Positions 6,716 to 24,076 of a stretch of 64,000 nt of DNA are shown here, one piece after another. Made by a program: the position numbers and the translations under genes. Within the stretch, counting starts at the first letter, position 1, and the number at the start of each line of letters is the position of its first letter. This DNA comes from an uncultured Planctomycetia bacterium (GTDB taxonomy: Bacteria > Omnitrophota > Gorgyraeia > 2-02-FULL-51-18): the NCBI GenBank assembly GCA_964642015.1, contig CAZXLF010000005.1:75847-139846 (forward strand), read 5' to 3'. The notes below the pieces were generated by a model. It was given only the letters and a program-made list of their open reading frames with translations. It did not search any database and had not been told where the DNA came from.

Positions 6716-6814
6716 AAAAGCCTCCTGCTATCACTCTCTGACCAGAGAGTATATCAAAAAAAGCAAAAATTAACAAAATTATTAAATTTATAGTTATTTA
6801 TACAAAAGGCAAAT

Positions 6815-7336
6815 CTATGGCGAGTACGGGGAATAGAAAACAGAAACGATAAAAGAAGCATCCAGGTTATTAGAACCTATTTGAGACCCAATCGATAATC
6901 TTTCTATTCGAAAACTCGATAACGGTTGATCGAGCTCAAATATAAAGCCTGAAACTTTATCCGCTTGCCCTCGTATCCGTAAATTGATCAATATCTGCTT
7001 AAAAGATTTAAGTTGTTTGACACTTTCGGCGTCGGGGCGTATTTCTAAGACTTCAACATTATTCTCATGAGCGATCGTTTCGATAGACGACAGAATATCG
7101 GATGATTCTTTGAAAAATTTCAATGCAGATCCAGATCCTGACGGAACTGATAGATTCTTTTGATATTGATGGTATTTGAAGATTCTTTTCTGAACGGTAA
7201 TGATTTCTTTGCCCATCTTGGAATAATGATCGATAAAAGGCGAAAGAGCAAATTGATAAAAAAAAGCTAGAATGATAACTATCCCAGTCGCTACAAGAAT
7301 ATACCGTTCTCTTTCTGACAGACCCTTTTTTTCCAT
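6815..7336 (-). CDS. gspM: T2SS protein M / PilO-like.
   Basis: 173 aa with an N-terminal TM helix. Size and position, directly after gspL, fit GspM. Confidence 0.5.
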   Translation of the reverse strand: MEKKGLSERERYILVATGIVIILAFFYQFALSPFIDHYSKMGKEIITVQKRIFKYHQYQKNLSVPSGSGSALKFFKESSDILSSIETIAHENNVEVLEIRPDAESVKQLKSFKQILINLRIRGQADKVSGFIFELDQPLSSFRIERLSIGSQIGSNNLDASFIVSVFYSPYSP

Positions 7337-7361
7337 TTAAATGACCTTGTTCTCTATTATT

Positions 7362-8768
7362 TTAAGAACGCTTCGCACATACGATCTCAAAATCGACAGC
7401 CCCTGCATCGCGCCTGGTTATATAACGCACAGAGGCTTCAAAATCTTTTAAAATATCCGAATGATTTAGACTCGATACAAATCTTAAGAGATCATTATAA
7501 TCTTGCGCTCTTCCGCGTAACTCGATCGTGTTAGATTCTTCATACAAAAAATTTATAAGAGATATATTCTCGGGAAGCAGTTTATGAACTTCATAATAGG
7601 CGTAAACAGCCCTTGGCTGTTTTTCAAAATGATCTTTCAAAACTTCACGAGATCTTTCCATTTCTTCAAATACTTTGGTATCGGAAATAGTACTTTTAGA
7701 CTCGGTCTTTAGATGCCTAAGATAAGACGCTCTTATTTGAAAAATATGGAAAAACGAAACCCCCAACAGAAAAATAACCAAGGCGATCAATGATAAAATT
7801 TTGATTCGTTGATTTATTTCTTTATGTTTTTCCCTTTGTTGCCTTATTTTTTCAGGAATAAAATTAAGAGCGGGCTTAATGTCAGAAACGCCTAAAGCCG
7901 AAATGGGAAAATGTTCGATTTCGGCATTTTCCGGAAGCATGATCTTTTCATCGACCCATTGGGCGGTGTTCAATGGCATCGTTTCACAGACCAATCCCAG
8001 AGAAGACAAATCGGCGCTTGCTGCTTCAGCTTCTCTCTTTGACCCAAAAATGACGGTTTTTTCTATTTTAGAATCCAAATTCTCTTTTTTTAAAGATTGT
8101 ATGATCTGCAGGACCGCTGATCTAAGGTCACTTATCCAATCCGCGTTATTCCTGTCAAGACGCACGCATTTTTCAAGCAAAAGCACCTGATCCTTGCTCA
8201 CTGCCAATTCAGCAAAAAAATGACCCAATTCAATGGACAAAATGGATCCCTGGACAGAAAGAAAATTTCTTTTTGTGACGCAAGCAAGCCCGCTTGTTGA
8301 AAGCGTCACGAATATATTCCGCCTTCTTTTCATGAACGAATCCGCAAAAAAACGTTCTATGACCTTGGCCGGTACGATAACAAGGTGGACATGAGAATAG
8401 TTGTCTTCCGTTTTCTCGATTATTTCATAACCGATGGTCAATTCCTCCGATTGATAAGGCAAATATTTTGATGCTTGGAACCCAAGCATCTTTTCTATCT
8501 CGATCGGATCATGAGTGGGGACTTTCACATATCTGAATGTATAATCGAGAGCTGACAAAAGCACGATAACAGGCTCACCTCGATAGTTTTCCATCCTTAA
8601 GAATTCGTCCACCGCGAGTTCCAGTCTCTTGTCGTCGGAAAAATCTCCTGCTATAAAATGATAAAAAGATAATTTAGGCGGATCGGTCTTGGAGAAGGAA
8701 CATCTTAAAAGTTCAAGCCCCAGATTCTTGGATATTTTCACTACAAAATAATTCTTTAAGCGTACCAC
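7362..8768 (-). CDS. gspL: T2SS protein L (PilM-like cytoplasmic domain, TM, then PilN-like periplasmic domain).
   Basis: 468 aa. The cytoplasmic N-terminal domain is followed by a TM helix (ILSLIALVIFLLGVSFFHIF) and a periplasmic tail. It overlaps gspK. Confidence 0.6.
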   Translation of the reverse strand: MVRLKNYFVVKISKNLGLELLRCSFSKTDPPKLSFYHFIAGDFSDDKRLELAVDEFLRMENYRGEPVIVLLSALDYTFRYVKVPTHDPIEIEKMLGFQASKYLPYQSEELTIGYEIIEKTEDNYSHVHLVIVPAKVIERFFADSFMKRRRNIFVTLSTSGLACVTKRNFLSVQGSILSIELGHFFAELAVSKDQVLLLEKCVRLDRNNADWISDLRSAVLQIIQSLKKENLDSKIEKTVIFGSKREAEAASADLSSLGLVCETMPLNTAQWVDEKIMLPENAEIEHFPISALGVSDIKPALNFIPEKIRQQREKHKEINQRIKILSLIALVIFLLGVSFFHIFQIRASYLRHLKTESKSTISDTKVFEEMERSREVLKDHFEKQPRAVYAYYEVHKLLPENISLINFLYEESNTIELRGRAQDYNDLLRFVSSLNHSDILKDFEASVRYITRRDAGAVDFEIVCAKRS

Positions 8769-9766
8769 TTTAACCGATCCTGGCTTCTTATATAAAATAC
8801 GGTGAGATCTTTTTTTACGCTTCCTGCGGTGCCTCGGACATGAATATTAAAATTATCAGAATCCGCCTTGATCCATCCGAGAGAAATGGTTTGTTTGACC
8901 AATTTTGTTCTTGGGTCATCTGCAACTGACCCTAGGCCTAATTTAGCGGCGATGACACGAGCATCCATATCATCGGAAGAAAAATATTGCCCCCCCTGTC
9001 TATAGTTGAGCACTGATCGAGCGAGATTTTCTGCGTCCATCTCAGTAATATCCAATTTTCCAATACTATTTAAATACTCATCATATGCCGCTTTGAACAG
9101 GCTTCGCAACACATATTCACTGGCCGTATTGATATTGATCTTATCCGTGCCAAGGGTCGTAAACCCTTCTTTTATCTGATCGAGAATATCCTCGTCCAGA
9201 CCGTAAAAACTTTTTACCAAAGCCAATTCATCCAAAACAGAAAAGTCGGATGCTTTGCACTCATACCCAAGCTGGCCCTTATAATAATTCTCCGATTCTT
9301 TATCGAGAGCTTCGGCTCCCCGCCACATTCGGATGTCCTTAGCGCCTAACGCGCTTTGTATTTCGTTAAAACCGCACTCTCTGAGAAATCTTCTGATCAA
9401 GGATTCAGGCGCTTTATTAATATTGATCTTCCCATCTTCTTCTCTTATTCCATAATAGGTCCCATCTTTGTTCTCATAAAAAATGCTCCCTAAAACGCTG
9501 TTTTCTTTGTCTATTTCTATTTTTTTAAAAGCCTCGTTTTTTGCCCATATTTCATTAAGGTGATCCTGTGAACTTTCCCGACCGTCCTGTATCAGACAAA
9601 GCTGTGCCATCCCTATCGCGGATCGAGCTGCCGCATAGGAACGCACTTCATCCAAAGAAGCTGATGCAATCCTGAGCGTTTGAGATACCTGAAAAGCCAA
9701 GCTGATACATACAAGCGTCAATAGAACCAACGCCCAAACACAAATGATCAATACCGATCCCTTCAT
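8756..9766 (-). CDS. gspK: T2SS minor pseudopilin K.
   Basis: N-terminal TM helix. The ININTASEYVLRSL HhH-like motif is typical of GspK. 336 aa. Confidence 0.75.
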   Translation of the reverse strand: MKGSVLIICVWALVLLTLVCISLAFQVSQTLRIASASLDEVRSYAAARSAIGMAQLCLIQDGRESSQDHLNEIWAKNEAFKKIEIDKENSVLGSIFYENKDGTYYGIREEDGKININKAPESLIRRFLRECGFNEIQSALGAKDIRMWRGAEALDKESENYYKGQLGYECKASDFSVLDELALVKSFYGLDEDILDQIKEGFTTLGTDKININTASEYVLRSLFKAAYDEYLNSIGKLDITEMDAENLARSVLNYRQGGQYFSSDDMDARVIAAKLGLGSVADDPRTKLVKQTISLGWIKADSDNFNIHVRGTAGSVKKDLTVFYIRSQDRLKWYA

Positions 9767-9780
9767 TTTTTGTCCGCTTC

Positions 9781-10377
9781 CTATGAGAGATAGAACTTTC
9801 TTTTGAAAATACCGTCCCCGCCTGTCCGCATTTCAATCTCAAGCCAATCGGGCATCTTCAATGGGTTCGACCAGGATTCCGAGACGATCTCCTTGCTGGT
9901 ATCTTTGTCCAAATAACCGTAAGTCAGATGAAACATTTTCACATCATCCAAAAAAATCAAAGCGCCCTGTTCGACAGGGATTTCCTTAAGCGCATCACCT
10001 CTGAACAACGCGTTTCTGTAAATCTTATCCTGCTTAAAAAAATAAACGACACGGGCAAAATGAGGGGACGTCCTTTTGATCTTTCCGTTCAATTCCTTTT
10101 CCCAGCGTTCTTTCAATGTAAAAAATTCGATCCGCGAAGCATCGCCTTTAAAATGACACTGAGTCACAGAATACGGAAATAGCTCTCTTAGATCATCTGC
10201 AAAAACCACAAAAAACCTGAAGAACGGCTCTCTTCGGCGCAAAATTTGGTCCGTTCTTCTGTAACTTCGGATACCCGAATTAAAAGCGCCTGACAGAGAA
10301 ACGACTACTATCGCTGATAGGGACAAAGCGATCAATATCTCAATTAAAGTCAAACCCGAGTTTTTCCTGAGTCTCAT
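9781..10377 (-). CDS. gspJ: T2SS minor pseudopilin J.
   Basis: Prepilin motif G|LTLIEILIALSL with E at +5. The start was moved to the internal ATG at 10377, because the ORF-track start at 10449 adds an implausible 24-aa leader. Confidence 0.7.
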   Translation of the reverse strand: MRLRKNSGLTLIEILIALSLSAIVVVSLSGAFNSGIRSYRRTDQILRRREPFFRFFVVFADDLRELFPYSVTQCHFKGDASRIEFFTLKERWEKELNGKIKRTSPHFARVVYFFKQDKIYRNALFRGDALKEIPVEQGALIFLDDVKMFHLTYGYLDKDTSKEIVSESWSNPLKMPDWLEIEMRTGGDGIFKRKFYLS

Positions 10378-10759
10378 CTCTTTTTTCCACAAGTATCGAT
10401 CGAACGATGATCGTCTCTTCTTTCCCTTCACGCATGGGATGCATTTCAAGTTTAAAACGGTACGTATCGAAACCCGGCGTAGAAAGATCCCAATCTTTAT
10501 CGAAAAAAGCTTTCACATGAACATTATCTTCTCGGGAGTTTATCGCCGAAACTTTTGCCAATACTTCTTCTCTCCCTTTCTGGTAATTCAAGTCGACCCA
10601 TTCCAACGAATCGATACTGGTTAATTGCAACTCACTGGCGTAAAGTGAGAGTTTTGAGGAGAAAGCGATGGTCTGAAGCGCGATCACGACTCCGAAAGCC
10701 AATAAAGCAACGGCGATCATGACTTCGAGAAGAAGAAAACCTCTTGAATCAAGCCGCAA
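10340..10759 (-). CDS. gspI: T2SS minor pseudopilin I.
   Basis: Prepilin motif RG|FLLLEVMIAVALLAF. 139 aa. Confidence 0.7.
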   Translation of the reverse strand: MRLDSRGFLLLEVMIAVALLAFGVVIALQTIAFSSKLSLYASELQLTSIDSLEWVDLNYQKGREEVLAKVSAINSREDNVHVKAFFDKDWDLSTPGFDTYRFKLEMHPMREGKEETIIVRSILVEKRDETQEKLGFDFN

Positions 10760-11210
10760 GTCTAAAATCTCCGAAAAAATCCTTCGAAGTCACTTTTCTG
10801 CTGTTCTTATTACTATCCTCAAACGTAATCTCGGCTGGGTCCAGACTCCCATCAGGGTAAAAAACGACGTTCGGAAAAGAACTTTTAATTGAGATCTGGT
10901 ACGGCAACTGTTTAAAAAGATGCTTCTCGTTCTGCTGCTCATACTCAAGCCAATAGCTTTTTTCGATGGAGTTGATCACCAGTTTGACCGGGTTCCCTTG
11001 GCTTCGGGCTCTCGAGCCTGCATAGCGCGTCACACTCATGAAATCTCTGACCACGCTGTCCAAACTTTCCTCTGATAGCCTGCCCGATATTCTGGGAAGA
11101 AGAAGCGCCGTGAAAATCCCCAAGATCGTGATGACCACGAGAAGTTCAATATATGTAAAACCGGAATTCCGCAAAAAATAGTTCTTATTTGAGTTCGCCG
11201 GCCATTTCAT
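10749..11210 (-). CDS. gspH: T2SS minor pseudopilin H.
   Basis: Prepilin motif SG|FTYIELLVVITILGI. The start is probably the second Met (MKWPANS...). Confidence 0.7.
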   Translation of the reverse strand: MKWPANSNKNYFLRNSGFTYIELLVVITILGIFTALLLPRISGRLSEESLDSVVRDFMSVTRYAGSRARSQGNPVKLVINSIEKSYWLEYEQQNEKHLFKQLPYQISIKSSFPNVVFYPDGSLDPAEITFEDSNKNSRKVTSKDFFGDFRLAA

Positions 11211-11638
11211 TATTCGGCTTTTGAAGAAGAGGACTGCCAATTGCCGATATCATCCTCATCCCCCTCTTCGCCGTCCGGACCTGTGGAAAATACATCATAA
11301 TCATTGCTGTGTTTACCTGGCTTTAGATAATGATAACGATTGCCCCAGGGGTCGACCGGTTTCTTTTTAAGGTAGGGGCCTTTCCAATTCTTGGCTGAGC
11401 TAGGCTGTGAAAGCAATGCCTCCAACCCTTCTTCGGTGGTCGGAAGTTTGCCATTGTCCACTTCATAAAGGTCCAATGCGAGAGGAATTGCTCCTGAAAC
11501 ATCGCTGCGCGCCACCTCCGTGCGCGCCTGCTCGCTACGGCCTAAAAGTCTCGGCATCACCATGGCGGCCAGCACGCCGATGATAATGATCACGAGCATG
11601 AGTTCGATCAGCGTAAAACCCTTGCTATTTTTAGCCAT
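11210..11638 (-). CDS. gspG: T2SS major pseudopilin G.
   Basis: Starts MAKNSKGFTLIELMLVIIIIGVLAA. The DPWGNRYHY...PG...YDVFSTGPDG motif is diagnostic of GspG. Confidence 0.9.
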   Translation of the reverse strand: MAKNSKGFTLIELMLVIIIIGVLAAMVMPRLLGRSEQARTEVARSDVSGAIPLALDLYEVDNGKLPTTEEGLEALLSQPSSAKNWKGPYLKKKPVDPWGNRYHYLKPGKHSNDYDVFSTGPDGEEGDEDDIGNWQSSSSKAE

Positions 11639-11649
11639 TGTATTATTCG

Positions 11650-12855
11650 CTATCTTACCAAAAAATTAATTTCAAAAATAGGCAAAAGCATGGATATCAC
11701 GATGAATCCTACGACCAAGCCGACAATGAGGATCACCATCGGTTCGAGTATTTTGGCAAAAATTTTTAACGATCCGTCCACTTCGCTTTCATAATCCTCA
11801 GCGATCCGCGAAAGGGTCTGATCCAGATTCCCCGTTTTTTCGCCGACCATGATCATCTGAACGGCCATTTCGGGAAAAATGCCAAGTTGTTTCAATGCTT
11901 CAGAAAAACTAGCTCCACCGAATATATTTTCCAGGATCATCTTCATCTTTTGTTTCAAGAACTCATTGTCAACGATGGAGATCGATGTCTGAAGAGCGCT
12001 GGCAAGAGGAATACCGCTCGAATAAAGAAGTGATAATACGCGTGATAGCCGGCCTATCTGAGCTTTAAATAAAAGAGGTCCAAAAAAAGGAATTTGAATT
12101 TTGACCCTATCATATATTGATCGATTTTTCACATCTTTCAATAACGTCATTGCCAGAGCCCAGACAATGCCCAAAAATAAAACGATGAAAAAACTGTTCT
12201 TTATAAGAAACGAGGAGATAAAAATAAGTATTTGAGTCGGGAGCGGCAATGCTTGTCCCATCTCTTTGAATACCATTACGATCTTAGGGACCACAAAAAA
12301 GAGCAGAGCAAAAATGGTCAAAAATCCCGTAAATATCACAAAAAACGGGTAGATCAGACTGTCCACCAGAGATCTCTTGTAATTTTGGGCCTTTTCCAAA
12401 TATTCAGACAGCCGTTTCAGTGTTTCCTTAAGTTTTCCGGAAGTCTCACCGGCATAGACCAATGCAATATACAGACTCGAGAAGATATTCGGATATTTTT
12501 TCATGCTATCCGATAGAGAACTGCCTTCCTTGATATCGCGGATCATATCTATCAGGATCGTTTTAAGCCCTACGCTCGGATTATTTTTAGAAAGCGAGTT
12601 CAGCGCCTCCATCACCGTAACGCCCGAATCGACAAGAGTAGCAAGCTGAGAAGTAAAAAGGATAAGATGCGCAGGTTTTACTTTTTTTGGAAAAAAAGAA
12701 AGATGAAAATTTTGAGCCGTTTGTGCGTTCACTTCCAAAGGAAAATAGCCTAATTGTTGGAGTCGAAAAACCGCGTCCGAGACGGATTCCGCCTCTAAAT
12801 CTCCTTGGATGATCTGCATAGGATCTTGTTTGGCTTTATAGACAAAGCGTGTCAT
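11650..12855 (-). CDS. gspF: T2SS inner-membrane platform protein F.
   Basis: 401 aa polytopic GspF/PilC-family sequence with two repeated cytoplasmic domains. Confidence 0.9.
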   Translation of the reverse strand: MTRFVYKAKQDPMQIIQGDLEAESVSDAVFRLQQLGYFPLEVNAQTAQNFHLSFFPKKVKPAHLILFTSQLATLVDSGVTVMEALNSLSKNNPSVGLKTILIDMIRDIKEGSSLSDSMKKYPNIFSSLYIALVYAGETSGKLKETLKRLSEYLEKAQNYKRSLVDSLIYPFFVIFTGFLTIFALLFFVVPKIVMVFKEMGQALPLPTQILIFISSFLIKNSFFIVLFLGIVWALAMTLLKDVKNRSIYDRVKIQIPFFGPLLFKAQIGRLSRVLSLLYSSGIPLASALQTSISIVDNEFLKQKMKMILENIFGGASFSEALKQLGIFPEMAVQMIMVGEKTGNLDQTLSRIAEDYESEVDGSLKIFAKILEPMVILIVGLVVGFIVISMLLPIFEINFLVR

Positions 12856-12858
12856 AGA

Positions 12859-14580
12859 TTATTCTGAAGCTGTTTCATTCTCGATCTGCGTGACTCGAAA
12901 CACTTCCATCAATGTCGTCAGACCGGAAAACGCCTTCAGGATACCGTCTTCCCTTAACGTCTTCATGCCTTGGCTGATCGCGACCTTTTCGATCTCCTGG
13001 CTTGAGGCGCGGCGGATAATAAGTTTCCGGATGGCTTCGTTCATCAGGATCACTTCATGGATGGCCATGCGTCCCCTATAACCAGTAAAACGGCATGCTT
13101 CACAGCCGCGTCCTTCCAAAAAATCGGCTTTGGATAGATCAAGGCGGGTATCTTTTATCCTATCCAACCATCTTTGTTTTGCTTCGCCGGAAAGACGCTC
13201 TTTACAATCCGGGCAGACCGTGCGGACCAGCCGCTGGGCGACTATACATTCAAGCGATGAAGCCACCAAAAAAGGCTCCAACCCCATATCCAAAAGTCTC
13301 GTGACGGCCCCCGGGGCATCATTCGTATGGAGCGTCGAAAGCACCAAGTGCCCGGTCAAAGCGGAGCGGATAGCGATCTCGGCCGTTTCGATGTCGCGCA
13401 CTTCCCCGATCATGATCACATCGGGATCATGACGCAAGATATGACGCAAAGCCAAAGCGAAATCAAGACCGATCTGCGGACTGACTTGAATTTGATTGAT
13501 CCCGCGTAATTGATATTCGACCGGATCTTCGGTCGTAACGATCTTGACCGATGAAGAATTCAACTTTGCAAGACAAGCGTAAAGCGTGGTGGATTTTCCG
13601 GCTCCGGTCGGACCGGTTACGAACACGATCCCGTGTAGTTTTTCGATCGCGTGTTCCAACTTTGCTCGGCTGTCGGTAGAAAGCCCTAATTTTCCGATCT
13701 CCAAGAAAAGTCCGGAGCTCAAGATGCGGATCTGAACCGATTCTCCAAAAATGGTCGGGATCGTCGAGACGCGCAGGTCCAGTTCCTCTTCATTCACTTT
13801 GATCTTGATGCGCCCGTCTTGCGGTAAGCGGCGGTCCGCAATATTCATTTTCGCCATGATCTTGATACGAGACACGATAGCAGGCTGAAAATAGCGCACA
13901 GTTTCAGGGACCGGTACTTCATAAAGCAGGCCATCAATGCGAAAACGGACTCTCAACTGCTCTTGGAACGGTTCTATATGAATATCTGTCGCGCGTTGTT
14001 TGACGGCCTCCGATAAGACCTGATTAACGAATCGAATGATCGAAGCTTCATTTGCCATCGACTCGATATCTTCGGCATCTTCATTGGCCTTTTCCATCTC
14101 CAAGACGCCTTTCTGAGCGATGATCTTTTCGACCGTCTCGGCGCCGACCCCATAATATTTGCGTATAGCTTCCTCAATTTCGATCTCACTCGCCAAGGCG
14201 CCTTCCACTTCCAGCTCTAAAAAAAGACGGAGGTCGTCCAAAATACGGGTATCCATAGGGTCCGCCATGGCCACCGTCAAGCAATGATTCTCGAATTTGG
14301 TGGGGATCACTTTATAATGGCTGACAAATTTGGCGGGAACTTTTTGAATAACGGAAGCATGGATATGCTTTCCTTTCAAATGCACGTAAGGAATATTCAA
14401 CTGACGAGCTAAAAGCGAGAAAACTTTTTCTTCAGAGGCAAAACCTAATTGTACAAGTGCCGTACAAATCAGCATCCCTGTCTTTTTCTGTTCCCGAAGA
14501 CCACGGTCAAGCTGTTCTGAAGTAATGACTCCGTTCTCTACTAAAATTTGCCCTATTTTGATGTTACTAACAGTAGTCAT
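12859..14580 (-). CDS. gspE: T2SS assembly ATPase E.
   Basis: GspE N-terminal domain. Walker A is GPTGAGKSTTLYA. A C-terminal tetracysteine motif is present (CPDC...CEAC). Confidence 0.9.
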   Translation of the reverse strand: MTTVSNIKIGQILVENGVITSEQLDRGLREQKKTGMLICTALVQLGFASEEKVFSLLARQLNIPYVHLKGKHIHASVIQKVPAKFVSHYKVIPTKFENHCLTVAMADPMDTRILDDLRLFLELEVEGALASEIEIEEAIRKYYGVGAETVEKIIAQKGVLEMEKANEDAEDIESMANEASIIRFVNQVLSEAVKQRATDIHIEPFQEQLRVRFRIDGLLYEVPVPETVRYFQPAIVSRIKIMAKMNIADRRLPQDGRIKIKVNEEELDLRVSTIPTIFGESVQIRILSSGLFLEIGKLGLSTDSRAKLEHAIEKLHGIVFVTGPTGAGKSTTLYACLAKLNSSSVKIVTTEDPVEYQLRGINQIQVSPQIGLDFALALRHILRHDPDVIMIGEVRDIETAEIAIRSALTGHLVLSTLHTNDAPGAVTRLLDMGLEPFLVASSLECIVAQRLVRTVCPDCKERLSGEAKQRWLDRIKDTRLDLSKADFLEGRGCEACRFTGYRGRMAIHEVILMNEAIRKLIIRRASSQEIEKVAISQGMKTLREDGILKAFSGLTTLMEVFRVTQIENETASE

Positions 14581-15866: not shown

Positions 15867-16370
15867 TTATTTAATCGCCCTTAATAAAACTCTCCATTCG
15901 CCCATGGCTTTCTTATTTGATACGCGATCCAGAACCTCCGCACGAAAAACATAAATTCCAGGAGGATCTGTTTTTTCAAGCGTAAAATCAATGGCCGGGT
16001 CTAGCATTACAAAGCCTCTTTTTTTCATAATATGTTTATGGACATGCTGGTCAATTTGCTTCATAATTTTTTCGTTTTTAGGATTAATAACAAATAAGCT
16101 GCCTATCAAATCTGTACTTCCAAGTTTATTAAGGTCAAATCCTGATACCACGATACTAATATAAATTGTTTTATTAGGGCCAATCTCGTGAACTCTCTTA
16201 ATATGAATTGGATGTTCAGGACGAGTCGAAATCCATTCTTTTATATAGTCTGGAGTGTCTGCAGTGGCAACATAAACCGTTAAATTTGGCCCTGCTTCCA
16301 ATGAATAACCCGATGCAGGGAGAAAAACAAGACTTGATAAAATTAATAAAATTCGAATTAAGAAGATCAC
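15867..16370 (-). CDS. Small secreted protein, candidate second Rhs immunity protein.
   Basis: Signal peptide. AT-rich. Its start overlaps the upstream ORF's stop, and it lies downstream of the rhs C-terminus. Confidence 0.4.
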   Translation of the reverse strand: MIFLIRILLILSSLVFLPASGYSLEAGPNLTVYVATADTPDYIKEWISTRPEHPIHIKRVHEIGPNKTIYISIVVSGFDLNKLGSTDLIGSLFVINPKNEKIMKQIDQHVHKHIMKKRGFVMLDPAIDFTLEKTDPPGIYVFRAEVLDRVSNKKAMGEWRVLLRAIK

Positions 16371-16888
16371 GGTCTTCCACTTACTGCTACACGTATTTGA
16401 ACTGATTTATCTAATTTCGAAATCTGAGCATCAGGTTCTAAAACGGTTATCTTTACATACAAATTATCTGAGTTTCCTTTATACGGAATTGGAAACTCAT
16501 ACATTGAGAATTCTTTATACCTATCTCTTTTGTTTTCGGAACCAAAATAAGCTATTGGTTTTTCCACTATTACAGACTCTAATACGTGTATATCATTATA
16601 GAGTTCTATTAATAATCTCCCTTTGTAAATATAATCGATAGGAATACTCTCGGTATCTGAATAAAAACTAATCTGATAAATATCGTGATACTTCGCATTT
16701 AATTTATAGATTCGGTTAAAACCTTTTTCTGATAAATTAAAATTATCTTGGACAATGGACTTGTACAAATCGACCTTCGGAGCGATTGAGTTAAAGAAAT
16801 GTGCTAATCCTGGCTGGGAAGATATATACTTAAAACTGATTAAAAGAAGAATTACTGATATTAAGAAAAAGGATTTTTTATTAATCAT
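16367..16888 (-). CDS. Small secreted protein, candidate cognate Rhs immunity protein.
   Basis: Signal peptide. About 30% GC. The start codon overlaps the rhs stop (16888), the classic toxin-immunity arrangement. Confidence 0.45.
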   Translation of the reverse strand: MINKKSFFLISVILLLISFKYISSQPGLAHFFNSIAPKVDLYKSIVQDNFNLSEKGFNRIYKLNAKYHDIYQISFYSDTESIPIDYIYKGRLLIELYNDIHVLESVIVEKPIAYFGSENKRDRYKEFSMYEFPIPYKGNSDNLYVKITVLEPDAQISKLDKSVQIRVAVSGRP

Positions 16889-19800
16889 CAGCCTGAATTA
16901 CGCTGTATATCTAAAAGTAAATAATAAACCTCTCTTAACCTTTCCGCAAAATCTTGGCAATTATTCTTTTCTTTTCCATCCAATCCAAACAACGAAAAGT
17001 CTCCGGTTCTCACGATTTTCAAGGCCTCTCTCATAACATCATCGTTATAATGCCTGTTGTCTGTTCTCTCGTATTGAGATGGGTCTTCGTTGTAAAAAAG
17101 ACCGTTCGGTCCGAAGCCAACATTTGATGGTTGTCTTCCATCTTCAAAAAATCCTTGTTCATGACTCAATTCAATATTGTTCCAATCTAAAACGTCATTG
17201 TTAATTGCAATTGGAACATCGCTCAATTTTCTTTTGGCAAAATAAAATAAACCAAATGGGTCAATAAAGCTAGTCGGGTTGTTTTTTACATATATAAAGA
17301 AATTAACGCCCCCTATAAATTTTGCTGGGTCTTCAGTAATAAACCTCCCTACAGATGGATTATAGTATCTATTCCTGTAGTAATAAAGGTTCGTTTCATT
17401 ATCCCACTGTCTTCCCGTGAACTGGAACTCATTATTCACAGAGCCTGTCTTGGATCTTGTATCTCCGAATACATCGTACGTATAGGTGCCGACAGATGTG
17501 CCGCTCAAGTTCGTGAGCATGCTCACAGACCCTAGGCCGTCGTAGATATAATAGGTATCCTGCGCTCCGGTACGCAGCGAAAGGGTCTCATCTATCCTCG
17601 GCCCATGGATATAAGACCTCTGAATATTGTCGGCGCTATTGGTCTCAAAGAGCGTCTCGAAGCCGTCGTAGTAGGTCCTTGTGACCTTGGTATTGACGCT
17701 CTTTTCTACCCTTCTCCCCAGCCCATCATAGGTATAGGTATCGGTATTGGTGCCTTGAGTGGCTTGTTTCAAGCGGTTCTCAAAGTCATAGGTGTAGTTT
17801 CTTGTGACAGCGTTGTTGGTGTTCTTCTCAGAGATCAGATCCCCGTTGGCGTCGTAAGAATAGAGTTTATTTTTGGAGGTGAGGAGACGGTTGGCGGCAT
17901 CATAGGTGTAAGTGTCGGATACTTTGCCGTTCTTCTTTAAAGTAAGACGATTGCCGACACCGTCATAGCTATATTCGAGCTTTGTTCCCGCGGGATAAAC
18001 CACAGAAGTAAGTCTATAGTCATTGTCGTAGGTGTAAGTGTGTGTGCCTTCATTATCCATCAAGGACAGTCTGTTGCCTACGCTGTCATAAGCATAGGAG
18101 AAGCTCGCGGTATTGAGATTTGAGCTTGTGTTTTTGTAGATGAGACTGGTGAGTCTATTGGCATTGTCGTAGGCATAGGCGGCTTGGATATTATTCGGAT
18201 AAGTAAGCAGCGTTCTCCTGCCTCCCGCATCATAGGCATAATTAAATACCTGGTTCTTCGGCGTCGTGAGAGACGTAAGCCGGTTCATGACGTCATAGGC
18301 ATATGTAGTCGTCCCGACGGTTGAAACCATCGTAGCTGTGTTCCCCACCGCATCATAGGTATACGACATTGTCTTGCCTTTCGGGAAAGTCACCTGGGAA
18401 AGCCGATTGAGCTTGTCATAAACATACTGTGTAAGTCCTGTGGCATCGGACATCGAGGCAAGATTTCCCGCGGCGTCGTAAACATTCGTCACAGTGGACG
18501 CGTCGGGATAAGTCGTCGCAAGAAGCCGGTTCACGGCGTCATAAGAATAACTTGTTTTATTTCCATTGGCGTCTGTTCTTGAAATAAGATTGCCCACGTT
18601 ATCGTAAGCGAATTTTGTGATGTTACCCAACGCGTCCTGCTCGCTGACCTTTCTGTCAAAAGCATCGTAGACGAATGTGGTAAGACCGCTGTTAGCGTCC
18701 TTGACGCTCAAAAGATTTCCGACATTATCATAGGTAAGCGTCGTGATAGCGCCCATAGGATCTTTGCTTGTGATCAACCGGTCAAGCGCATCATAAGTAA
18801 AAACGCTTTGATTGTTATCCGCGTCCGTCACCGAAAGCACATTTCCGTGAGCATCATACGTGAACGTCGTGACGTGATTCATCGCATCGGTGATCGTCGA
18901 AGGGTGGCTGGAAGCATTGACATTGCCCTGGTCCGAGCATGAACTGCATCCGCTGTCTCCGGATCCAAGCGGCGCGCCGTAAGCGAATTTCGTCATGTTG
19001 CCGTTGGGATCCGTCACGCTAAGAAGACGGTCATCATCGTCATAAGTCATATTGGTGGATGAGCCGTTGGCGAACTGGATCTTCAATATCCTATCACCGG
19101 CGTCATACGTAAAAGCAGTCGTTCTACCCAGAGTGTTCGTGACCGAAAGAAGCCGGCCGACGACATCATAGTTGAAGCTTGTGGTGTTCCCCAGGGCATC
19201 TGTCTGAGACACGAGATTCCCATAACCGTCATAAGCGTAGGACGTCGTATTGCCCAAAGGATCAGTCTGAGTTAGAAGCTCATCCAGATTATTATAGGTA
19301 GAAGTCGTGATGTGTCCCGAAGCATCTGTCAGTTTGGTGACATTTCCGTGGGAGTCGAAATCACGGCTCGTGACATGACCATTGCGGTCTGTTATCGACT
19401 GCCAGAAATTATAAGAGCTGTTATAAGAATAGGCCGTGATGTTGCCAGAAGAATCGGTATTCTGATTAAGGTTCTGATCTGAACCATAAGCCAAGGTCGT
19501 CGCCCTCCCTAACGCATCTGTCTTCTGTGTCATGAGGTTCGTATTGGGATCATAAGAATATTTCCACACACCACCCGTGGGATCCAAAGCTAGCGTGCCA
19601 AGACCGATCTTAAAATATTCGTAACTCCAATTATTTTTCAGCTGATCGGTCATCGTCGAAGTGCCGAGCAAATTGTTATAAGAAAATTGAATCGTGGAGC
19701 CGTCGGGCTTGACTTCTTTGATCACCTGGTCAGTACTATTGTAAGTATAGTTGGTGGCATAGCCCATCGCGTCCGTCACAGTTGTGATATTATGCGGATC

Positions 19801-20685
19801 AAACGGATCAGTGTAGCTATAATTAACTTTTCTATTTAATGGATCTTTGACCGAGATCAAATTGTTCAATAAATTATCGTAATTATAAGTCCAGATTCGG
19901 TTCAACGGATCGGTCATCTGGCTTATTTTGCCGTTGGAGCCATAAGTGAAATTCAAGCTTCGTCCTAAGTCATCGCTGATGGAATTTTTGAAGCCGTTCG
20001 CATCATAACTAAATTTGATCGAATGCCCGCTTCGGTCGCTTATAGAAGTAAGACGTGTGATAAAATTTTGATCGAAATGGTAGGTCGTTCCATGAGGTTT
20101 TGCGTAAGCAAAAGTTCCTTGGAGCGGATCCCCTCCTGTCGAATACCACGAGACATTTCTTTGGCCATCTGTAAAAACCACCGGACCCGGAACGATCTGC
20201 GTATCGGTCAACAATAGAAAAGTAAGGAGTGAGCTGTCTTGATCCCTTACGGTCACCGATGAGCCAGCTTTCATGGTTCCGCTGATCACAATAAAATTTG
20301 TGATAAGTTCAATATCAAGTGTTGAAGTCCAACCCGCGCCGAATACGCCGCTAAAACCGATCTGATTCGAATAACTGCGGATCAGCTGAAGCGAAAAACC
20401 ATTTCTTGATGTGCCGGGTCCCGGGATCTTGACATCTGTCACAGGAATGTAGAGCTTGCCGCCGGTAAGCAGTACCGGATCTACAGGGCAAGTGGTATCA
20501 ACCGGAGGGTTAAAACAATTTGGACAAGACGGAGGGCAATCTTTAAGATTATAAGGTTGAGCAGTAGTAAAAGAAGTGGCGGTAGGGCAACCAGCGGGCG
20601 GTGATTGATTGGCCATCGCAAAATTCTGCAGGCCGAATGTCAGAACACAAAGAAAGCTGATGAACTTAAGGGAACGGTTTTTCAT
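16888..20685 (-). CDS. rhs: Rhs/YD-repeat polymorphic toxin with a Sec signal peptide and a variable C-terminal toxin domain.
   Basis: Signal peptide MKNRSLKFISFLCVLTFGLQNFAMA. Dozens of YD repeats (YTYDAHGNVLSVTD, YDALDRLITSKD...). The Rhs core end reads YYNPSVGRFITEDPAKFIGGVNFFIYVKNNPTSFIDPFGL, followed by a 116-aa tip. Confidence 0.9.
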   Translation of the reverse strand: MKNRSLKFISFLCVLTFGLQNFAMANQSPPAGCPTATSFTTAQPYNLKDCPPSCPNCFNPPVDTTCPVDPVLLTGGKLYIPVTDVKIPGPGTSRNGFSLQLIRSYSNQIGFSGVFGAGWTSTLDIELITNFIVISGTMKAGSSVTVRDQDSSLLTFLLLTDTQIVPGPVVFTDGQRNVSWYSTGGDPLQGTFAYAKPHGTTYHFDQNFITRLTSISDRSGHSIKFSYDANGFKNSISDDLGRSLNFTYGSNGKISQMTDPLNRIWTYNYDNLLNNLISVKDPLNRKVNYSYTDPFDPHNITTVTDAMGYATNYTYNSTDQVIKEVKPDGSTIQFSYNNLLGTSTMTDQLKNNWSYEYFKIGLGTLALDPTGGVWKYSYDPNTNLMTQKTDALGRATTLAYGSDQNLNQNTDSSGNITAYSYNSSYNFWQSITDRNGHVTSRDFDSHGNVTKLTDASGHITTSTYNNLDELLTQTDPLGNTTSYAYDGYGNLVSQTDALGNTTSFNYDVVGRLLSVTNTLGRTTAFTYDAGDRILKIQFANGSSTNMTYDDDDRLLSVTDPNGNMTKFAYGAPLGSGDSGCSSCSDQGNVNASSHPSTITDAMNHVTTFTYDAHGNVLSVTDADNNQSVFTYDALDRLITSKDPMGAITTLTYDNVGNLLSVKDANSGLTTFVYDAFDRKVSEQDALGNITKFAYDNVGNLISRTDANGNKTSYSYDAVNRLLATTYPDASTVTNVYDAAGNLASMSDATGLTQYVYDKLNRLSQVTFPKGKTMSYTYDAVGNTATMVSTVGTTTYAYDVMNRLTSLTTPKNQVFNYAYDAGGRRTLLTYPNNIQAAYAYDNANRLTSLIYKNTSSNLNTASFSYAYDSVGNRLSLMDNEGTHTYTYDNDYRLTSVVYPAGTKLEYSYDGVGNRLTLKKNGKVSDTYTYDAANRLLTSKNKLYSYDANGDLISEKNTNNAVTRNYTYDFENRLKQATQGTNTDTYTYDGLGRRVEKSVNTKVTRTYYDGFETLFETNSADNIQRSYIHGPRIDETLSLRTGAQDTYYIYDGLGSVSMLTNLSGTSVGTYTYDVFGDTRSKTGSVNNEFQFTGRQWDNETNLYYYRNRYYNPSVGRFITEDPAKFIGGVNFFIYVKNNPTSFIDPFGLFYFAKRKLSDVPIAINNDVLDWNNIELSHEQGFFEDGRQPSNVGFGPNGLFYNEDPSQYERTDNRHYNDDVMREALKIVRTGDFSLFGLDGKEKNNCQDFAERLREVYYLLLDIQRNSG

Positions 20686-21891
20686 TTAAAAGCCCTCCGC
20701 GGACTGCAAGGCATCGGGATTGTTCTTCAAGATAGCTTTGTACCTTTGGATCGTTCTCAAAGATTCTTGGGCTTCCTCGTATCGCTTTTCACTCAAAAAG
20801 TCGTCTTGTTTGACGCTTGAAAATTCCTGTTCGGATCTGTCGAGGTCCCTTAGATAAAAATAGATCCTTCCTTTCCTAAGATGCGCTTCTGAAGAATAAC
20901 CTTTTATCTGGGACGCCTGGTCAAGCAATGCGAGAGCTTCTTTTGGTTTCTTGAGATCGTAGTCGATATCGGCCATCTCCATCATGATCTCAGCGGTCAT
21001 CTTGCCATCTTTTAGAGCATTGTCAGCGTAATTAAGCGCTTGCTGAAGCCGGTCCGTCAGCGTGTAATCATTGCGAAAAGATTGGATGACCTTCACGGGA
21101 TTAAAATCCGCCTCGAACATTTCCCGCGCTTTGGCGAATTGATGAAGCTGCGAATAAAGATCGCCTAAGCCATTCTTATCGTTTACTTGAGTAAAATAGG
21201 CTTCTGCTTTCTTAAAATCCCCTTGCGCCATCGCAACATAACCGAGTCCTGAAACATCATGGGCTTTCTGGAAATAGACGGCGGCTTTTTCGTAGTGTCT
21301 CACGGCCAGGAACACAAGTCCCATACCGCTGTCATCTTTCGCCAAAGTGAAATTGCGCGTCGCCGCGTCAAAATCTTTTTCTTTTAACGCGGTCAGGCCG
21401 AGGCCTGTATAATCCTGGATCCTCTGGAAACAATTTTTGGCCTCTTTTGTGTTATTTTTGGCAAGCGCGATAAGACCCAAGCCCGACCAATCATTGGCTT
21501 TTGAAAAAGCGTCCCGCGCATTTTGCTCATCCTTGAGCGCTAAGTAGGTAAGGCCGAGGCCGCGGTTGTCATTCTTTAAAAGAAAGTGTTTTAGAGCTTC
21601 TTGATATTCACGCCTTTTCAGTCTACAAAGCCCCAGCCCTGAAAGGTCATTGGCCTTTAAAAAGTGGCTCTCCGCTTCATAGGGTTTATTTTGGGCGAGC
21701 ATGACCAGGCCGGCGCCTGATTCATTCCCTATTTTAGAATAAAGCTCCAGCGCTTCATTGAATTGATGCTTGGTGAACGCCAAATACGCGCGTGTCTCCT
21801 CTCCCCCTTCAAAGCCCAGCACGAACGCGGTAGAAATAATAAGCGATATCAAAAAGATCAATTTCAATCGTGGTCTATTCATGGCGCGCAC
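20686..21891 (-). CDS. Secreted TPR-like repeat protein (seven roughly 34-aa repeats, each containing SGLGL/TGLGL).
   Basis: Signal peptide. The repeat pattern is F.KAND.SGLGL.AL....Y..A...F. Its stop abuts the rhs start. Confidence 0.7.
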   Translation of the reverse strand: MRAMNRPRLKLIFLISLIISTAFVLGFEGGEETRAYLAFTKHQFNEALELYSKIGNESGAGLVMLAQNKPYEAESHFLKANDLSGLGLCRLKRREYQEALKHFLLKNDNRGLGLTYLALKDEQNARDAFSKANDWSGLGLIALAKNNTKEAKNCFQRIQDYTGLGLTALKEKDFDAATRNFTLAKDDSGMGLVFLAVRHYEKAAVYFQKAHDVSGLGYVAMAQGDFKKAEAYFTQVNDKNGLGDLYSQLHQFAKAREMFEADFNPVKVIQSFRNDYTLTDRLQQALNYADNALKDGKMTAEIMMEMADIDYDLKKPKEALALLDQASQIKGYSSEAHLRKGRIYFYLRDLDRSEQEFSSVKQDDFLSEKRYEEAQESLRTIQRYKAILKNNPDALQSAEGF

Positions 21892-21947
21892 CTTTCATTT
21901 GGTCTTTCGTAAATGATACCTGACGATCCTGTGAGTGTCAATTATTA

Positions 21948-21990: not shown

Positions 21991-23751
21991 TTATATGCGT
22001 TGGGACCAGCACATCCAAAGGTCCAGACTCACCAACACAAAGATCAATGTCCCGATCAGAAAAGGGATCGCCGTAAAAGGCTTGATCCATCCTTTCCATC
22101 CGGTGCGATAGAACAACGGGCTTAAGACCATCGCCGCGGCAGGCGCCATGAACCACAGGTTCTTTGTTTGAACGCCCAGCGCAAAAAGAACCAGCCCCAT
22201 CAATACTTCACTAAGGAAAACAGCCCCGCTATTAGGGTGAAATGAAAAGAATTTTGCGATCAGATCCTGCCGCTCTTTCGCGGCTGAATGACTGTGAGTG
22301 TTCCTGAAAACGGCCTTCCCGGTCAAAAGAAAAACGATGACAGCGGAAGCCTCGGTGACCAAAGAACCCATAAAAACAAAATTAGACAAAGCCAGATATT
22401 GAAATAACCGGACTGGCTTTTTATAAAGGTCAATGATCGCCGGAATAGTCGGAGCTAAGATCGATAATGCCATCATGAAATAAAAATCAAGCGACCAAAA
22501 TATATGGTAACGGATATGGATCAGGTACTCAAACACCGATTTGCCCTGAGGCACCGGCATTAAAAGAAAAGATCCGGGATATCTGAAATTTGAATAATAG
22601 GTCGGCATCAACGTCCCAAGCATCAAAAGGAATAAAAGCATGATCGACGTTTGATAATGGCTACAAGCTGAAATAATGACGTCCATCTTTTCAAACCAGG
22701 GAATATGACGCGCTCTAAAGAAGCTCGCATAGCCCTTTTTAATGAATTCACTTGTAGCCGTGATCCATTTTTCCGTTCGGATCCTTAGTCGTCCGTAAGT
22801 CGGCGGAAAATCTTCTGAGCAAGTAACACGCTCCGTGTAAATCCCCCGGTAGCCCAATTCCCTTGCCTTTGCCGCGAACGCGAGGTCCTCAGCTACGAGC
22901 TCCGGAAAACCGCCCATTTTCTGCCACACTTCTGTTTTGATAAGAGCGCCATGACCATAGAACATCACAAACCCGAAGCGGTTCTTAGTTTTCACGAAAT
23001 AGCGGTAATGTTGACTGACCATGGGGCCCATCGCTTGGCCGAACGGATCTTTTTGGAAAGGATCATGTTCTTGGGCGGTTTGTATAAAGGCTGCGTCGGG
23101 ATAAGCTTTAAAATAAGGCAGAAGAGATCCGATAAATTTCTTCGGCAGAGGCCCATCCGAATCGCAGACCGCAAAGAAAGGATATTCATGTTGTATTTGG
23201 CGGAGCGCATGATTTAAATTACCTGCTTTAAATGCCCTCCGGTCCGGTCTTCGTATGACCGTCACATTGTGAGGATACTTTTTGGACCACTGATCGACTT
23301 CTAAGCAATATTCCGGCAAAGTGCTGTCATCAAGAATGAAAATATGAAAATTCGGGTAATCAAGATCCAGATAAGTTTCTACGGCCTCTTTCCTGAAATC
23401 ATTGCGTGTCGTGTATAAAATAGCGGTCTTTGGAAAATCAGTGAGTGACGGCAGATCGGGTTCGAAAGTTTGACGTCGAAGCCATAAAGAGGCCAAGATC
23501 ATCGTTGTGTTATAGATCGCATATAACCAAAAAATATCTAAGCATAAAACAAAGATCACGACACATATTCTGGCAAGAAAATTAGGCGCGGCGTAAGTAA
23601 GCGCAAAAAGTCTTGGATCAAAATATAAGATAGCGCACAGCCAGCAAATGATGATCCAAAGAAATACCGGCTCATCTTTCTTTTCATCGAGCAAGATCGA
23701 TTCAGTTCGTTGGGTCAAGTAAATCGGTTTTGTTAAAGTATAGTTATTCAT
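21991..23751 (-). CDS. GT2-family membrane glycosyltransferase (processive, cellulose/chitin-synthase-like).
   Basis: Multiple TM segments. DSD (DXD) and TED...R..RW-like motifs. 586 aa. Confidence 0.8.
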   Translation of the reverse strand: MNNYTLTKPIYLTQRTESILLDEKKDEPVFLWIIICWLCAILYFDPRLFALTYAAPNFLARICVVIFVLCLDIFWLYAIYNTTMILASLWLRRQTFEPDLPSLTDFPKTAILYTTRNDFRKEAVETYLDLDYPNFHIFILDDSTLPEYCLEVDQWSKKYPHNVTVIRRPDRRAFKAGNLNHALRQIQHEYPFFAVCDSDGPLPKKFIGSLLPYFKAYPDAAFIQTAQEHDPFQKDPFGQAMGPMVSQHYRYFVKTKNRFGFVMFYGHGALIKTEVWQKMGGFPELVAEDLAFAAKARELGYRGIYTERVTCSEDFPPTYGRLRIRTEKWITATSEFIKKGYASFFRARHIPWFEKMDVIISACSHYQTSIMLLFLLMLGTLMPTYYSNFRYPGSFLLMPVPQGKSVFEYLIHIRYHIFWSLDFYFMMALSILAPTIPAIIDLYKKPVRLFQYLALSNFVFMGSLVTEASAVIVFLLTGKAVFRNTHSHSAAKERQDLIAKFFSFHPNSGAVFLSEVLMGLVLFALGVQTKNLWFMAPAAAMVLSPLFYRTGWKGWIKPFTAIPFLIGTLIFVLVSLDLWMCWSQRI

Positions 23752-23848: not shown

Positions 23849-24076
23849 ACTGGGTGGAATTTTGCTTGTTCCATATATTCCTTAACTGTACAACATCTGA
23901 GAAGTGTACTGAGCGATCTTGTATTTGTCAATAGACGAATTGATTTTTTCTCAAATTTTTATCTTAAATCCAAATATAAATCACTAATAATTACCAATGG
24001 TTAACTACACAGAGACCGGGACTTATTCATTTTTAAAAAGAAAAATCCCTTGAATAAAACCCAAGGAGTAAATCAA

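Follow-up and report, generated by a model that had tools for sequence, protein, structure and literature searches.

The 64,000-nucleotide stretch of DNA analyzed here (the window; positions 75,847 to 139,846 of contig CAZXLF010000005.1, assembly GCA_964642015.1, from an uncultured Planctomycetia bacterium assigned by GTDB to the Omnitrophota) encodes a 1265-aa Rhs protein with a predicted Sec signal peptide. The Rhs gene lies between a gene for a tetratricopeptide repeat (TPR)-like protein and two small open reading frames (ORFs), ORF3 and ORF4, and a gene for a membrane family-2 glycosyltransferase (GT2) stands just upstream. We conclude that the locus as a whole is probably best explained as a Sec-dependent Rhs polymorphic toxin system directed against other bacteria. 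The protein shows the sequence features of a Rhs polymorphic toxin, including a YD-repeat shell, a Rhs core with a DPxGL motif, a variable tip and a downstream putative cognate immunity gene. It also carries a signal peptide without any other secretion-specific N-terminal domain, which is the mark of the Sec and type II secretion system (T2SS) class of these toxins (Zhang, Aravind et al., 2012, PMC3482391).

The Rhs protein and its toxin cassette

The genes and features of the Rhs locus are as follows:

21891..20686, minus strand: TPR-like gene, 401 aa when read from a GTG
20685..16888, minus strand: Rhs gene, 1265 aa, predicted YD-repeat polymorphic toxin
20611..20685, minus strand: Sec signal peptide of Rhs (residues 1-25), predicted to be cleaved between AMA and NQ
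20218..20481, minus strand: DUF6531 domain (residues 69-156; PF20148, E 1.7e-8), beginning at the conserved DPVLLTGGK
17248..17478, minus strand: Rhs-associated core (residues 1070-1146; TIGR03696, 84.5 bits against a cut-off of 32.5), ending in DPFGL
16891..17247, minus strand: toxin tip, 119 aa after DPFGL, with invariant H29, D36 and N96-C97-Q98
16888..16367, minus strand: ORF3, 173 aa, putative cognate immunity protein with no Pfam or PDB match
16370..15867, minus strand: ORF4, 167 aa from a GTG start, predicted to be exported, imported together with the tip and ORF3
15867..17247, minus strand: low-GC cassette made up of the tip, ORF3 and ORF4

A preliminary description of this DNA reported four tightly coupled minus-strand ORFs, and all four are present at these coordinates with abutting or overlapping junctions. 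The stop codon of the TPR-like gene abuts the Rhs ATG, the Rhs stop and the ORF3 ATG share 1 nt, and the ORF3 stop and the ORF4 GTG share 4 nt. An alternative ATG at position 21882, with GAAAGG 8 nt before it, would give a TPR-like protein of 398 aa; it is the start used by other gene callers and is probably the true one. The possibility that the Rhs gene is a pseudogene was also checked. The gene is intact, and the identical protein is encoded in two independent Logan assemblies and in one 204,677-bp NCBI contig; it is therefore neither a pseudogene nor an assembly artefact.

Searches of Pfam and NCBIfam assigned most of the protein to the Rhs repeat families, with RHS_repeat PF05593 matching in 17 stretches (E 4e-118) and TIGR01643 at E 5e-80. 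The core sequence reads ...TEDP...IDPFGL, in which DPFGL is the predicted autoproteolysis motif. The N-terminus, MKNRSLKFISFLCVLTFGLQNFAMA up to the predicted cleavage site and NQSPPAGCP beyond it, has the charge, hydrophobic core and AxA layout (n-h-c) of a Sec signal, and the site is conserved across orthologues. The h-region, being too short, is not scored as a transmembrane (TM) helix by hydropathy. Beyond the cleavage site come a conserved N-x-x-P-P-x-G motif and a Cys/Pro-rich linker, as judged from the sequence and from an alignment of 10 orthologous N-termini (alignment A4). Neither PAAR, prePAAR, VgrG and SpvB nor any other trafficking domain was detected in the window Rhs with Pfam and NCBIfam. 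Domain scans thus bear out the earlier account of a 1265-aa Rhs protein without PAAR or VgrG, the Sec signal having been recognized by inspection. The closest solved relatives are type VI secretion system (T6SS) Rhs shells; TccC chains match the core region only (residues 1045-1149), and with no SpvB or TcA match the protein falls outside the TcB/TcC class of ABC (Tc) toxins. For seven Rhs orthologues, the alignment to the window protein stops at residue 1145-1165, and all of their tips differ.

The window tip has no match in Pfam, NCBIfam or the PDB by sequence. A word-indexed homologue search returned a single relative; the family emerged only from an exhaustive HMMER search of 1.84 billion cluster representatives, in which it comprises 356 relatives at E<=1e-3. 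Among the best 150 of these, the domain is at the extreme C-terminus in 135, often after a DPxGL-like motif, and carriers of the same tip family elsewhere also begin with signal peptides. Across an alignment of 40 members, H29, F33, D36, G44, R73, A75, N96-C97-Q98 and Y108 are invariant. Individual members weakly match the Pfam families LRAT (13 of 40) and PPPDE/Peptidase_C97 (9 of 40), with a best E of 3e-4. The window tip itself gave no match to either family and does not reach the gathering threshold of LRAT (PF04970) or Peptidase_C97 (PF05903). Because the window tip lacks such a match and its relatives match only weakly, we file the tip as a separate family within the permuted NlpC/P60 clan.

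In a model of the tip, C97 is located at the start of a helix spanning residues 97-118, and the histidine precedes the cysteine, as the clan requires. The modelled fold is similar to solved permuted NlpC/P60 members (YiiX, PPPDE, TseH and PLAAT), although the scores are modest, and a Foldseek search of the model against the PDB gave no match. The dyad, the profile matches and the fold ranking agree in identifying the tip as a predicted permuted papain-like Cys-His enzyme of the NlpC/P60 clan, LRAT/PPPDE-like in character. A single-sequence AlphaFold2 model of the tip was discarded for its predicted local distance difference test score (pLDDT 42). Assignment to Tox-HDC or another curated toxin family was rejected, no family member having matched such a Pfam model.

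A related enzyme gives some guide to the substrate. The permuted NlpC/P60 toxin Tox-Act1 exerts its toxicity in the periplasm alone; it cleaves phosphatidylglycerol and phosphatidylethanolamine and is neutralised by a membrane protein, and phospholipase activity of TseH was demonstrated in the same study (PMC12994826, 2026). The analogy makes acyl-ester bonds of membrane lipids, reached from the periplasmic side, the most likely point of attack for the window tip, with a peptide or amide substrate less likely. A tip of this clan and an exported ORF3 family would fit a periplasm-facing target, consistent with the compartment proposed in the preliminary description. The closest orthologue, the Rhs of locus L103 (4159-8469; 49% identity over the core, with a TPR partner at 61%), carries a tip of a different His...Cys type, GHSWVEY...NPCSSFA in the style of YiiX/DUF4105, and the small secreted protein encoded after it is likewise a different one. 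This Rhs clade may favour papain-like tips that act in the periplasm.

ORF3 has no Pfam or PDB match in sequence and profile searches. Of 80 metagenome loci with tip relatives, an iterated search showed 37 to have an ORF3-family gene immediately after the tip, and many of the other loci end at the tip. Nearly all full-length members (36 of 37) have an N-terminal hydrophobic segment, several with a cysteine in a lipoprotein-signal context. On these sequence grounds ORF3 is the predicted cognate immunity family of this tip, membrane-anchored or exported, and the periplasmic placement of immunity suggested earlier is upheld for this family. In the window, hydropathy gives one N-terminal hydrophobic segment each for ORF3, ORF4 and the TPR-like protein.

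The one close relative of the window tip in the word-indexed database is an orphan Rhs C-terminal fragment of 139 aa (67% identity) in an orphan array represented by loci L003 and L004. It is followed by a 172-aa gene product 52% identical to ORF3 and then by a 180-aa product 54% identical to ORF4 over its full length; the tip-ORF3-ORF4 trio is also an orphan cassette in L003, L004, L019 and L020. The Rhs core has a GC content of 46.5%, against 36.1% for the tip, 30.1% for ORF3 and 35.5% for ORF4, and the DNA just downstream is back at 48.4%; the three were therefore imported together, as one low-GC cassette that took the place of an earlier tip at the DPFGL boundary.

ORF4 recurs only in the L003/L019 cassette, and no other homologue was found among the 80 tip loci, by word-indexed search or in Pfam, NCBIfam and the PDB. 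The idea that it is a diverged duplicate of ORF3 was rejected (hhalign probability 0.3%, and a BLASTP match of just 40 residues). The NCBI annotation holds only the last 65 codons of ORF4; the L003 homologue aligns from residue 1, and this conservation supports the 167-aa GTG-initiated reading. Of the two tandem immunity candidates put forward earlier, ORF3 is thus borne out by its recurrence beside the tip, whereas ORF4, with one homologous cassette and no relationship to ORF3, is not.

In the L003 and L019 arrays, every orphan Rhs C-terminal fragment is accompanied by an immunity gene of its own. The arrays include at least three tips with a His...NNC-type motif, and a gene for a Rce1-like CPBP protease lies inside the array. 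The 171-aa gene product after the second L003 cassette has no pairwise BLAST similarity to ORF3, and iterated searching places it in the ORF3 family.

Conserved partners of the Rhs gene

The TPR-like protein belongs to a family of 23 proteins of about 400 aa (alignment A1), whose named sources are metagenome-assembled genomes (MAGs) labelled Omnitrophota, Verrucomicrobiota (including Chthoniobacteraceae) and Planctomycetia. It begins with an anchor or signal, continues with about eight repeats, each of 26 residues (D-x-S-G-x-G-L), and a conserved block, NPVKVIQSYRNDY, and has TPRs at its C-terminus. In the window protein, G-x-G-L recurs at residues 59, 85, 111, 137, 163, 189 and 215, giving a 26-residue period across residues ~40-250. 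This is not the canonical 34-residue TPR period: Pfam TPR models match only positions 6-27 of 34 in the repeat part, and ordinary TPR-like matches are confined to residues ~275-365. The original label of a secreted TPR-like repeat protein therefore stands for the predicted N-terminal signal or anchor, and requires correction for the repeat, whose period is 26 and not 34. No outer-membrane barrel region was found in the 400 aa of this protein.

A Sec-signal Rhs gene directly follows the TPR-like gene in all 17 distinct loci recovered, from MAGs of Omnitrophota, Verrucomicrobiota and Planctomycetota. At locus L018 (1995-9356) the two are joined in one ORF of 2453 aa, which runs from ~33 repeats and the conserved block through a C39 peptidase domain and a double-glycine (GG)-like site, MKAVIAG, into Rhs sequence from DPVLVTGG onward. 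This is a Rosetta-stone fusion, its three components being encoded separately in other loci. The adjacency in 17/17 loci and the L018 fusion support the TPR-like gene as a genuine Rhs partner, as the preliminary description had supposed.

That description omitted a further gene. Its four-gene operon is incomplete in that a conserved GT2 gene lies immediately upstream:

21991..23751, minus strand: GT2 gene, 586 aa, BcsA-like membrane family-2 glycosyltransferase

An orthologue is present in 12 of the 17 TPR-Rhs loci, either upstream (GT2-TPR-Rhs) or downstream after the immunity gene (TPR-Rhs-immunity-GT2). The flanking genes of the loci are unrelated, being lipopolysaccharide (LPS) genes in one and a conjugative element in another, for example. 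The predicted topology has two N-terminal TM segments, the GT2 domain and at least five C-terminal TM segments. The protein matches Pfam Glyco_tranf_2_3 and Glyco_trans_2_3 and, weakly, NCBIfam CelA and MdoH; its closest solved relative is the cellulose synthase BcsA (E 1e-19). BcsA naturally pairs with BcsC, a periplasmic TPR protein. Nine orthologues (alignment A5) share the invariant motifs DD141-142, KAGNxN, D197/D199 (DxD), ED288-289 and R323-x-R-T-E-K-W329, so that the predicted enzyme has the membrane-embedded processive GT2 motifs of Bcs/Pga-like systems. Coding regions overlap between GT2 and TPR in L007 and between gspE, a T2SS gene, and GT2 in L005 and L103, suggesting translational coupling within one operon.

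Several related loci also encode a C39 peptidase of ~185 aa with one N-terminal TM segment. It was found in L009/L010, L101 and L012, and as a fused domain in L018. The stand-alone, TM-anchored genes are at L009 7567-8112, L101 6822-7385 and L012 15636-16196. Exactly in these loci, the hydrophobic segment of Rhs is followed by L-[ST]-x-x-E-M-x-x-[IV]-K-G-G, the consensus of double-glycine leaders, with ...MKAVIAG at the equivalent place in L018. Loci without C39 (the window, L005, L007, L016, L017 and L102) have AxA followed by N at the same alignment position, and the window accordingly represents the signal-peptidase variant, without C39 and without a GG leader. Both cleavage sites are followed by the conserved pattern N-x-(A/P)-P-x-(Q/E)-G in alignment A4, which covers window 20326-20685 with its orthologues. 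Given the covariation of C39 with the GG leader, it seems important to the system that a defined mature N-terminus is released, and the conserved mature N-terminus may be a sorting or recognition motif. Like bacteriocin systems with a peptidase-containing ABC transporter (PCAT), these loci combine a double-glycine leader with a C39 peptidase, here encoded alongside Rhs or fused to it. In the Rhs loci, by contrast with those systems, C39 stands alone with one TM segment or is fused to TPR-Rhs and is not the N-terminal domain of an ABC exporter, and the GG leader lies behind a hydrophobic signal-anchor and not at the extreme N-terminus.

No consistent fourth partner was found among the 17 loci, HEAT-repeat, TSP3 and GT1 genes being present in a few only. 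A 309-aa HEAT-repeat protein is encoded near TPR-Rhs in L013 (5635-6564) and L101 (2130-3059). In L013, DPxGL is missing from the Rhs, and a second Rhs-repeat protein, 1253 aa long, comes after it; this may be a divergent subtype. In L009 (1-7210 and 16683-21197), the C39-GT2-TPR-Rhs cluster is located within a conjugative element (TrwC relaxase, T4 coupling protein and TraG-like ATPase) near AbiEi/AbiEii, and the whole L009-type module may therefore be mobile.

Export, mechanism and rival explanations

The preliminary description placed a complete T2SS near the Rhs locus, and this was confirmed:

14580..3187, minus strand: T2SS cluster of gspE, F, G, H, I, J and K, an L-like gene, gspM, an ExeA-like AAA ATPase gene, a gspC-like gene and the gspD secretin gene

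The cluster begins 1.3 kb downstream of ORF4 on the same strand, past a thioredoxin gene. The ATPase gene (AAA_22, ExeA/GspA-like; 5689-6507, minus strand) lies between the gspM-like and gspC-like genes. A T2SS adjoins the Rhs module in the window, L005/L006, L103 and L104, which are all of the loci (4/4) in which the TPR protein shares 58% identity or more with that of the window. Three arrangements were observed: in the window the T2SS is downstream of the cassette, in L005/L006 and L103 gspE overlaps the GT2 start, and in L104 pseudopilin genes run into the TPR gene. For the window's lineage, a T2SS link better than chance is supported by these arrangements, and T2SS export of Rhs is plausible. 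The giant secreted proteins of Omnitrophota are also typically encoded beside T2SS-like loci (preprint 10.1101/2023.11.21.568195). The suggestion of a Sec/T2SS-exported Rhs is thus sustained for the Sec signal and for the linkage within one clade, and the T2SS step itself is one that we infer.

The window ORFs scanned (the ten largest others, the Rhs neighbours and the T2SS cluster) include no T6SS family, in agreement with the earlier statement that the window has no T6SS gene, and none is present among the annotated neighbours of the 17 related loci. PAAR, VgrG and Eag (DUF1795) adaptors, which would mark a T6SS effector, were not detected in Rhs or its neighbours.

Under the Sec-dependent toxin system that we favour, Rhs would be translocated by Sec and its leader removed. 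The shell enclosing the self-cleaved tip would be held in the periplasm by the TPR-like partner and would then cross the outer membrane, in the window's lineage most likely via the adjacent T2SS. A glycan made by GT2 would retain or tether the shell, or present it, at the cell surface. In a target cell the tip would act on the periplasm side, most likely as a phospholipase or acyl-hydrolase and less likely on peptidoglycan peptides, while membrane-anchored ORF3 would protect kin cells. A wider proposal, that GT2, the TPR-like protein and, in some lineages, C39 form an undescribed apparatus that processes, chaperones and exports or displays a Sec-translocated Rhs with or without a T2SS, is advanced tentatively.

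Several points weigh against this system. The evidence for the whole model is computational throughout, and the signal peptides were called by eye and hydropathy, with no predictor. For the roles of the TPR-like protein and GT2, the only grounds are linkage and a single fusion. Five of the 17 loci have no observed GT2, four of them on contigs that end in or just after Rhs; the fifth, L013, has 6 kb downstream without GT2. No PilZ domain was detected, and neither was an outer-membrane barrel such as synthase-dependent polysaccharide systems require; no porin gene is conserved in the loci. Among the 13 more distant loci, none has a T2SS within the available flanks, and the fit of the Rhs shell through a secretin is unproven. 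The T6SS negatives cover the window ORFs scanned and the annotated neighbours, and not the rest of the genome. ORF4 is unexplained, and may act as a second immunity protein or in an accessory role. Finally, the 99 bp that separate GT2 from the TPR-like gene contain a promoter-like site:

21913..21941, minus strand: sigma-70-like promoter match, TTGACA-17-TATCAT, 11/12 consensus positions, the best of the region

The number of such sites in the region is not above that in shuffled sequence, and this is a consensus match only; because a strong promoter-like site stands between them, GT2 and the TPR-like gene in the window may be transcribed separately.

The main rival holds that GT2 and TPR, with C39 where present, are a dedicated export or surface-display path to which the T2SS is incidental, working like a synthase-dependent polysaccharide system with Rhs carried on or tethered by the nascent glycan. 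We regard it as a possible but doubtful account. GT2 and TPR are the sole partners conserved across all three phyla, the T2SS being adjacent in one clade only, and TPR, C39 and Rhs are fused in L018. No processive-synthase motif is missing from the window GT2, which resembles BcsA, the natural partner of the periplasmic TPR protein BcsC, and the N-x-x-P-P-x-G motif of mature Rhs is kept whichever peptidase exposes it. The polymorphic-toxin survey gives no signature neighbour gene for the Sec class (PMC3482391), a further point in favour. However, no locus has an outer-membrane porin component, movement of a folded 140-kDa protein by a glycan synthase is without precedent, T2SS linkage is complete (4/4) in the window's clade, and the five loci without an observed GT2 count here as well. 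It is unlikely that GT2 and TPR instead serve the producer's own envelope, for example through a polysaccharide or periplasmic glucan that masks the Rhs receptor or forms a matrix, with Rhs a matrix- or glycan-binding kin-discrimination toxin and the linkage a matter of shared regulation or ecology. Such a role would suit the promoter-like site that the window GT2 has of its own and the stronger one of the TPR gene, the resemblance of GT2 to the periplasmic glucan synthase MdoH/OpgH, and its variable position upstream or downstream of TPR-Rhs. The TPR-Rhs fusion and the invariant adjacency nevertheless speak for a physical cooperation between Rhs and at least the TPR protein, and the coding overlaps in L007, L005 and L103 suggest one operon.

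Two further explanations concern whether and how Rhs leaves the cell. It might have no dedicated release across the outer membrane, staying periplasmic or leaving by vesicles or lysis while immunity protects the producer in transit. The periplasmic, membrane-anchored immunity protein and the lack of an outer-membrane component in the GT2-TPR-Rhs core agree with this. We nonetheless consider it improbable given the repeated, rearranged T2SS linkage in the window's clade and the published T2SS-dependent Rhs bacteriocin; polymorphic tips and orphan cassette arrays, moreover, imply that conflict between strains is ongoing, and such conflict requires that the toxin reach other cells. Least likely, and in our estimate very improbable, is that Rhs is ordinary T6SS cargo, with its PAAR, VgrG or adaptor genes and the T6SS genes elsewhere in the genome and an N-terminus that is a prePAAR-like or TM element. 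T6SS Rhs shells are indeed its closest solved relatives. Nevertheless, PAAR, VgrG, DUF1795 and other T6SS families are missing from Rhs, its neighbours and the ten other window ORFs, and the n-h-c signal with AxA is conserved in orthologues or replaced by a GG leader with C39. Other carriers of the same tip likewise start with signal peptides, and the annotated neighbours at the 17 loci include no T6SS gene.

Known systems and neighbouring genes

The Sec-class Rhs protein, T2SS-dependent Rhs activity and periplasm-acting permuted NlpC/P60 toxins are already known, so that the core idea of the preliminary description is right and is not new. Its premise that a signal-peptide Rhs is rare was overstated: a T2SS/Sec-dependent class is established (PMC3482391), and a T2SS-linked Rhs bacteriocin has been published (PMC7259588). 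Toxins of that class likewise have a signal peptide as the sole trafficking element, an RHS shell and a variable tip, followed by a downstream immunity gene, and they also have orphan tip/immunity cassettes. They differ from the present loci in the constant TPR-like and GT2 partners and the occasional C39 with its GG leader, none of which the survey lists (PMC3482391). The bacteriocin, Bcn-A of Xanthomonas perforans, is an antibacterial Rhs toxin whose activity in the supernatant was lost in a mutant of the T2SS secretin xpsD (PMC7259588). It is likewise a diderm Rhs, needs accessory ORFs, and has an immunity protein predicted in the inner membrane. The likeness is by description alone; Bcn-A comes from another phylum, and its accessory ORFs (124, 100 and 290 aa) are downstream and not described as TPR or GT2.

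T6SS Rhs effectors, including RhsA (7q97), Tse5 (8cp6) and Tre23 (7pq5), share the YD shell, the core with DPxGL self-cleavage and the encapsulated tip, and are the best solved sequence matches. The window Rhs differs from them in having no PAAR, prePAAR or VgrG, no Eag chaperone and no nearby T6SS genes, with a Sec signal instead. Tox-Act1 and TseH (PMC12994826; PDB 6v98) are also T6SS-delivered, unlike the predicted route here. The His-to-Cys spacing is 68 residues in the window tip against 108 in Tox-Act1; the window tip is shorter and nearer the LRAT/PPPDE profiles. ORF3, with a single anchor and a soluble domain, and Imm-Act1, with two TM helices, are different immunity families.

Systems of the BcsA-BcsC and PgaC-PgaA type likewise combine a processive GT2 (DD, DxD, ED and QxxRW-like motifs) with a periplasmic TPR-like protein. 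In contrast to these, the Rhs loci have no outer-membrane barrel and no PilZ, and their third constant member is a Rhs toxin. To our knowledge, no Rhs toxin is known in a synthase-dependent polysaccharide system.

The GT2/TPR partnership, the Rhs fusion, the C39/GG variant and the conserved mature N-terminus are undescribed in the 2012 survey and in full-text searches, which is not proof of absence, and the GT2/TPR module appears to be new for Rhs toxins. Signal-peptide-only Rhs proteins are common in diderm genome surveys, and it is essentially unknown by what means a folded shell of this size exits the periplasm and gets to a neighbouring cell. The window and the 16 related loci supply candidates, namely the TPR-like protein, GT2, a C39 peptidase that tracks the GG leader, and a T2SS kept through three rearrangements, and these make the export of Sec-dependent Rhs toxins in diderms testable. 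If real, a dedicated apparatus would amount to glycan-coupled, T6SS-independent Rhs delivery in Omnitrophota, Verrucomicrobiota and Planctomycetota. The putative permuted NlpC/P60 tip and its anchored ORF3-like partner would be a widespread toxin/immunity pair without a Pfam model, adding to the lipid-targeting NlpC/P60 toxins.

The genes surrounding the Rhs locus are mostly of other kinds. A tRNA-Ser(GCT) with a terminator-like hairpin (24047-24166, minus strand) lies 325 bp upstream of GT2 and bounds the block from GT2 to ORF4. Between the Rhs cassette and the T2SS is a gene for an exported thioredoxin-fold protein with a signal peptide and a WCHYC motif (15050-15562, minus strand). It was considered as a part of the system and rejected, being absent from every related locus examined; the link is doubtful although the N-terminal linker of Rhs has five cysteines. 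The ten largest other ORFs of the window encode housekeeping proteins of a diderm: BamA, LpxC-FabZ, a MsbA-like ABC transporter, FtsH, DnaB, GlnA, SerS, GlmU, SHMT and a SurA-like protein. LpxC-FabZ is a fusion in one 450-aa ORF (40082-41434, minus strand), and the same fusion adjoins the triad in L007.

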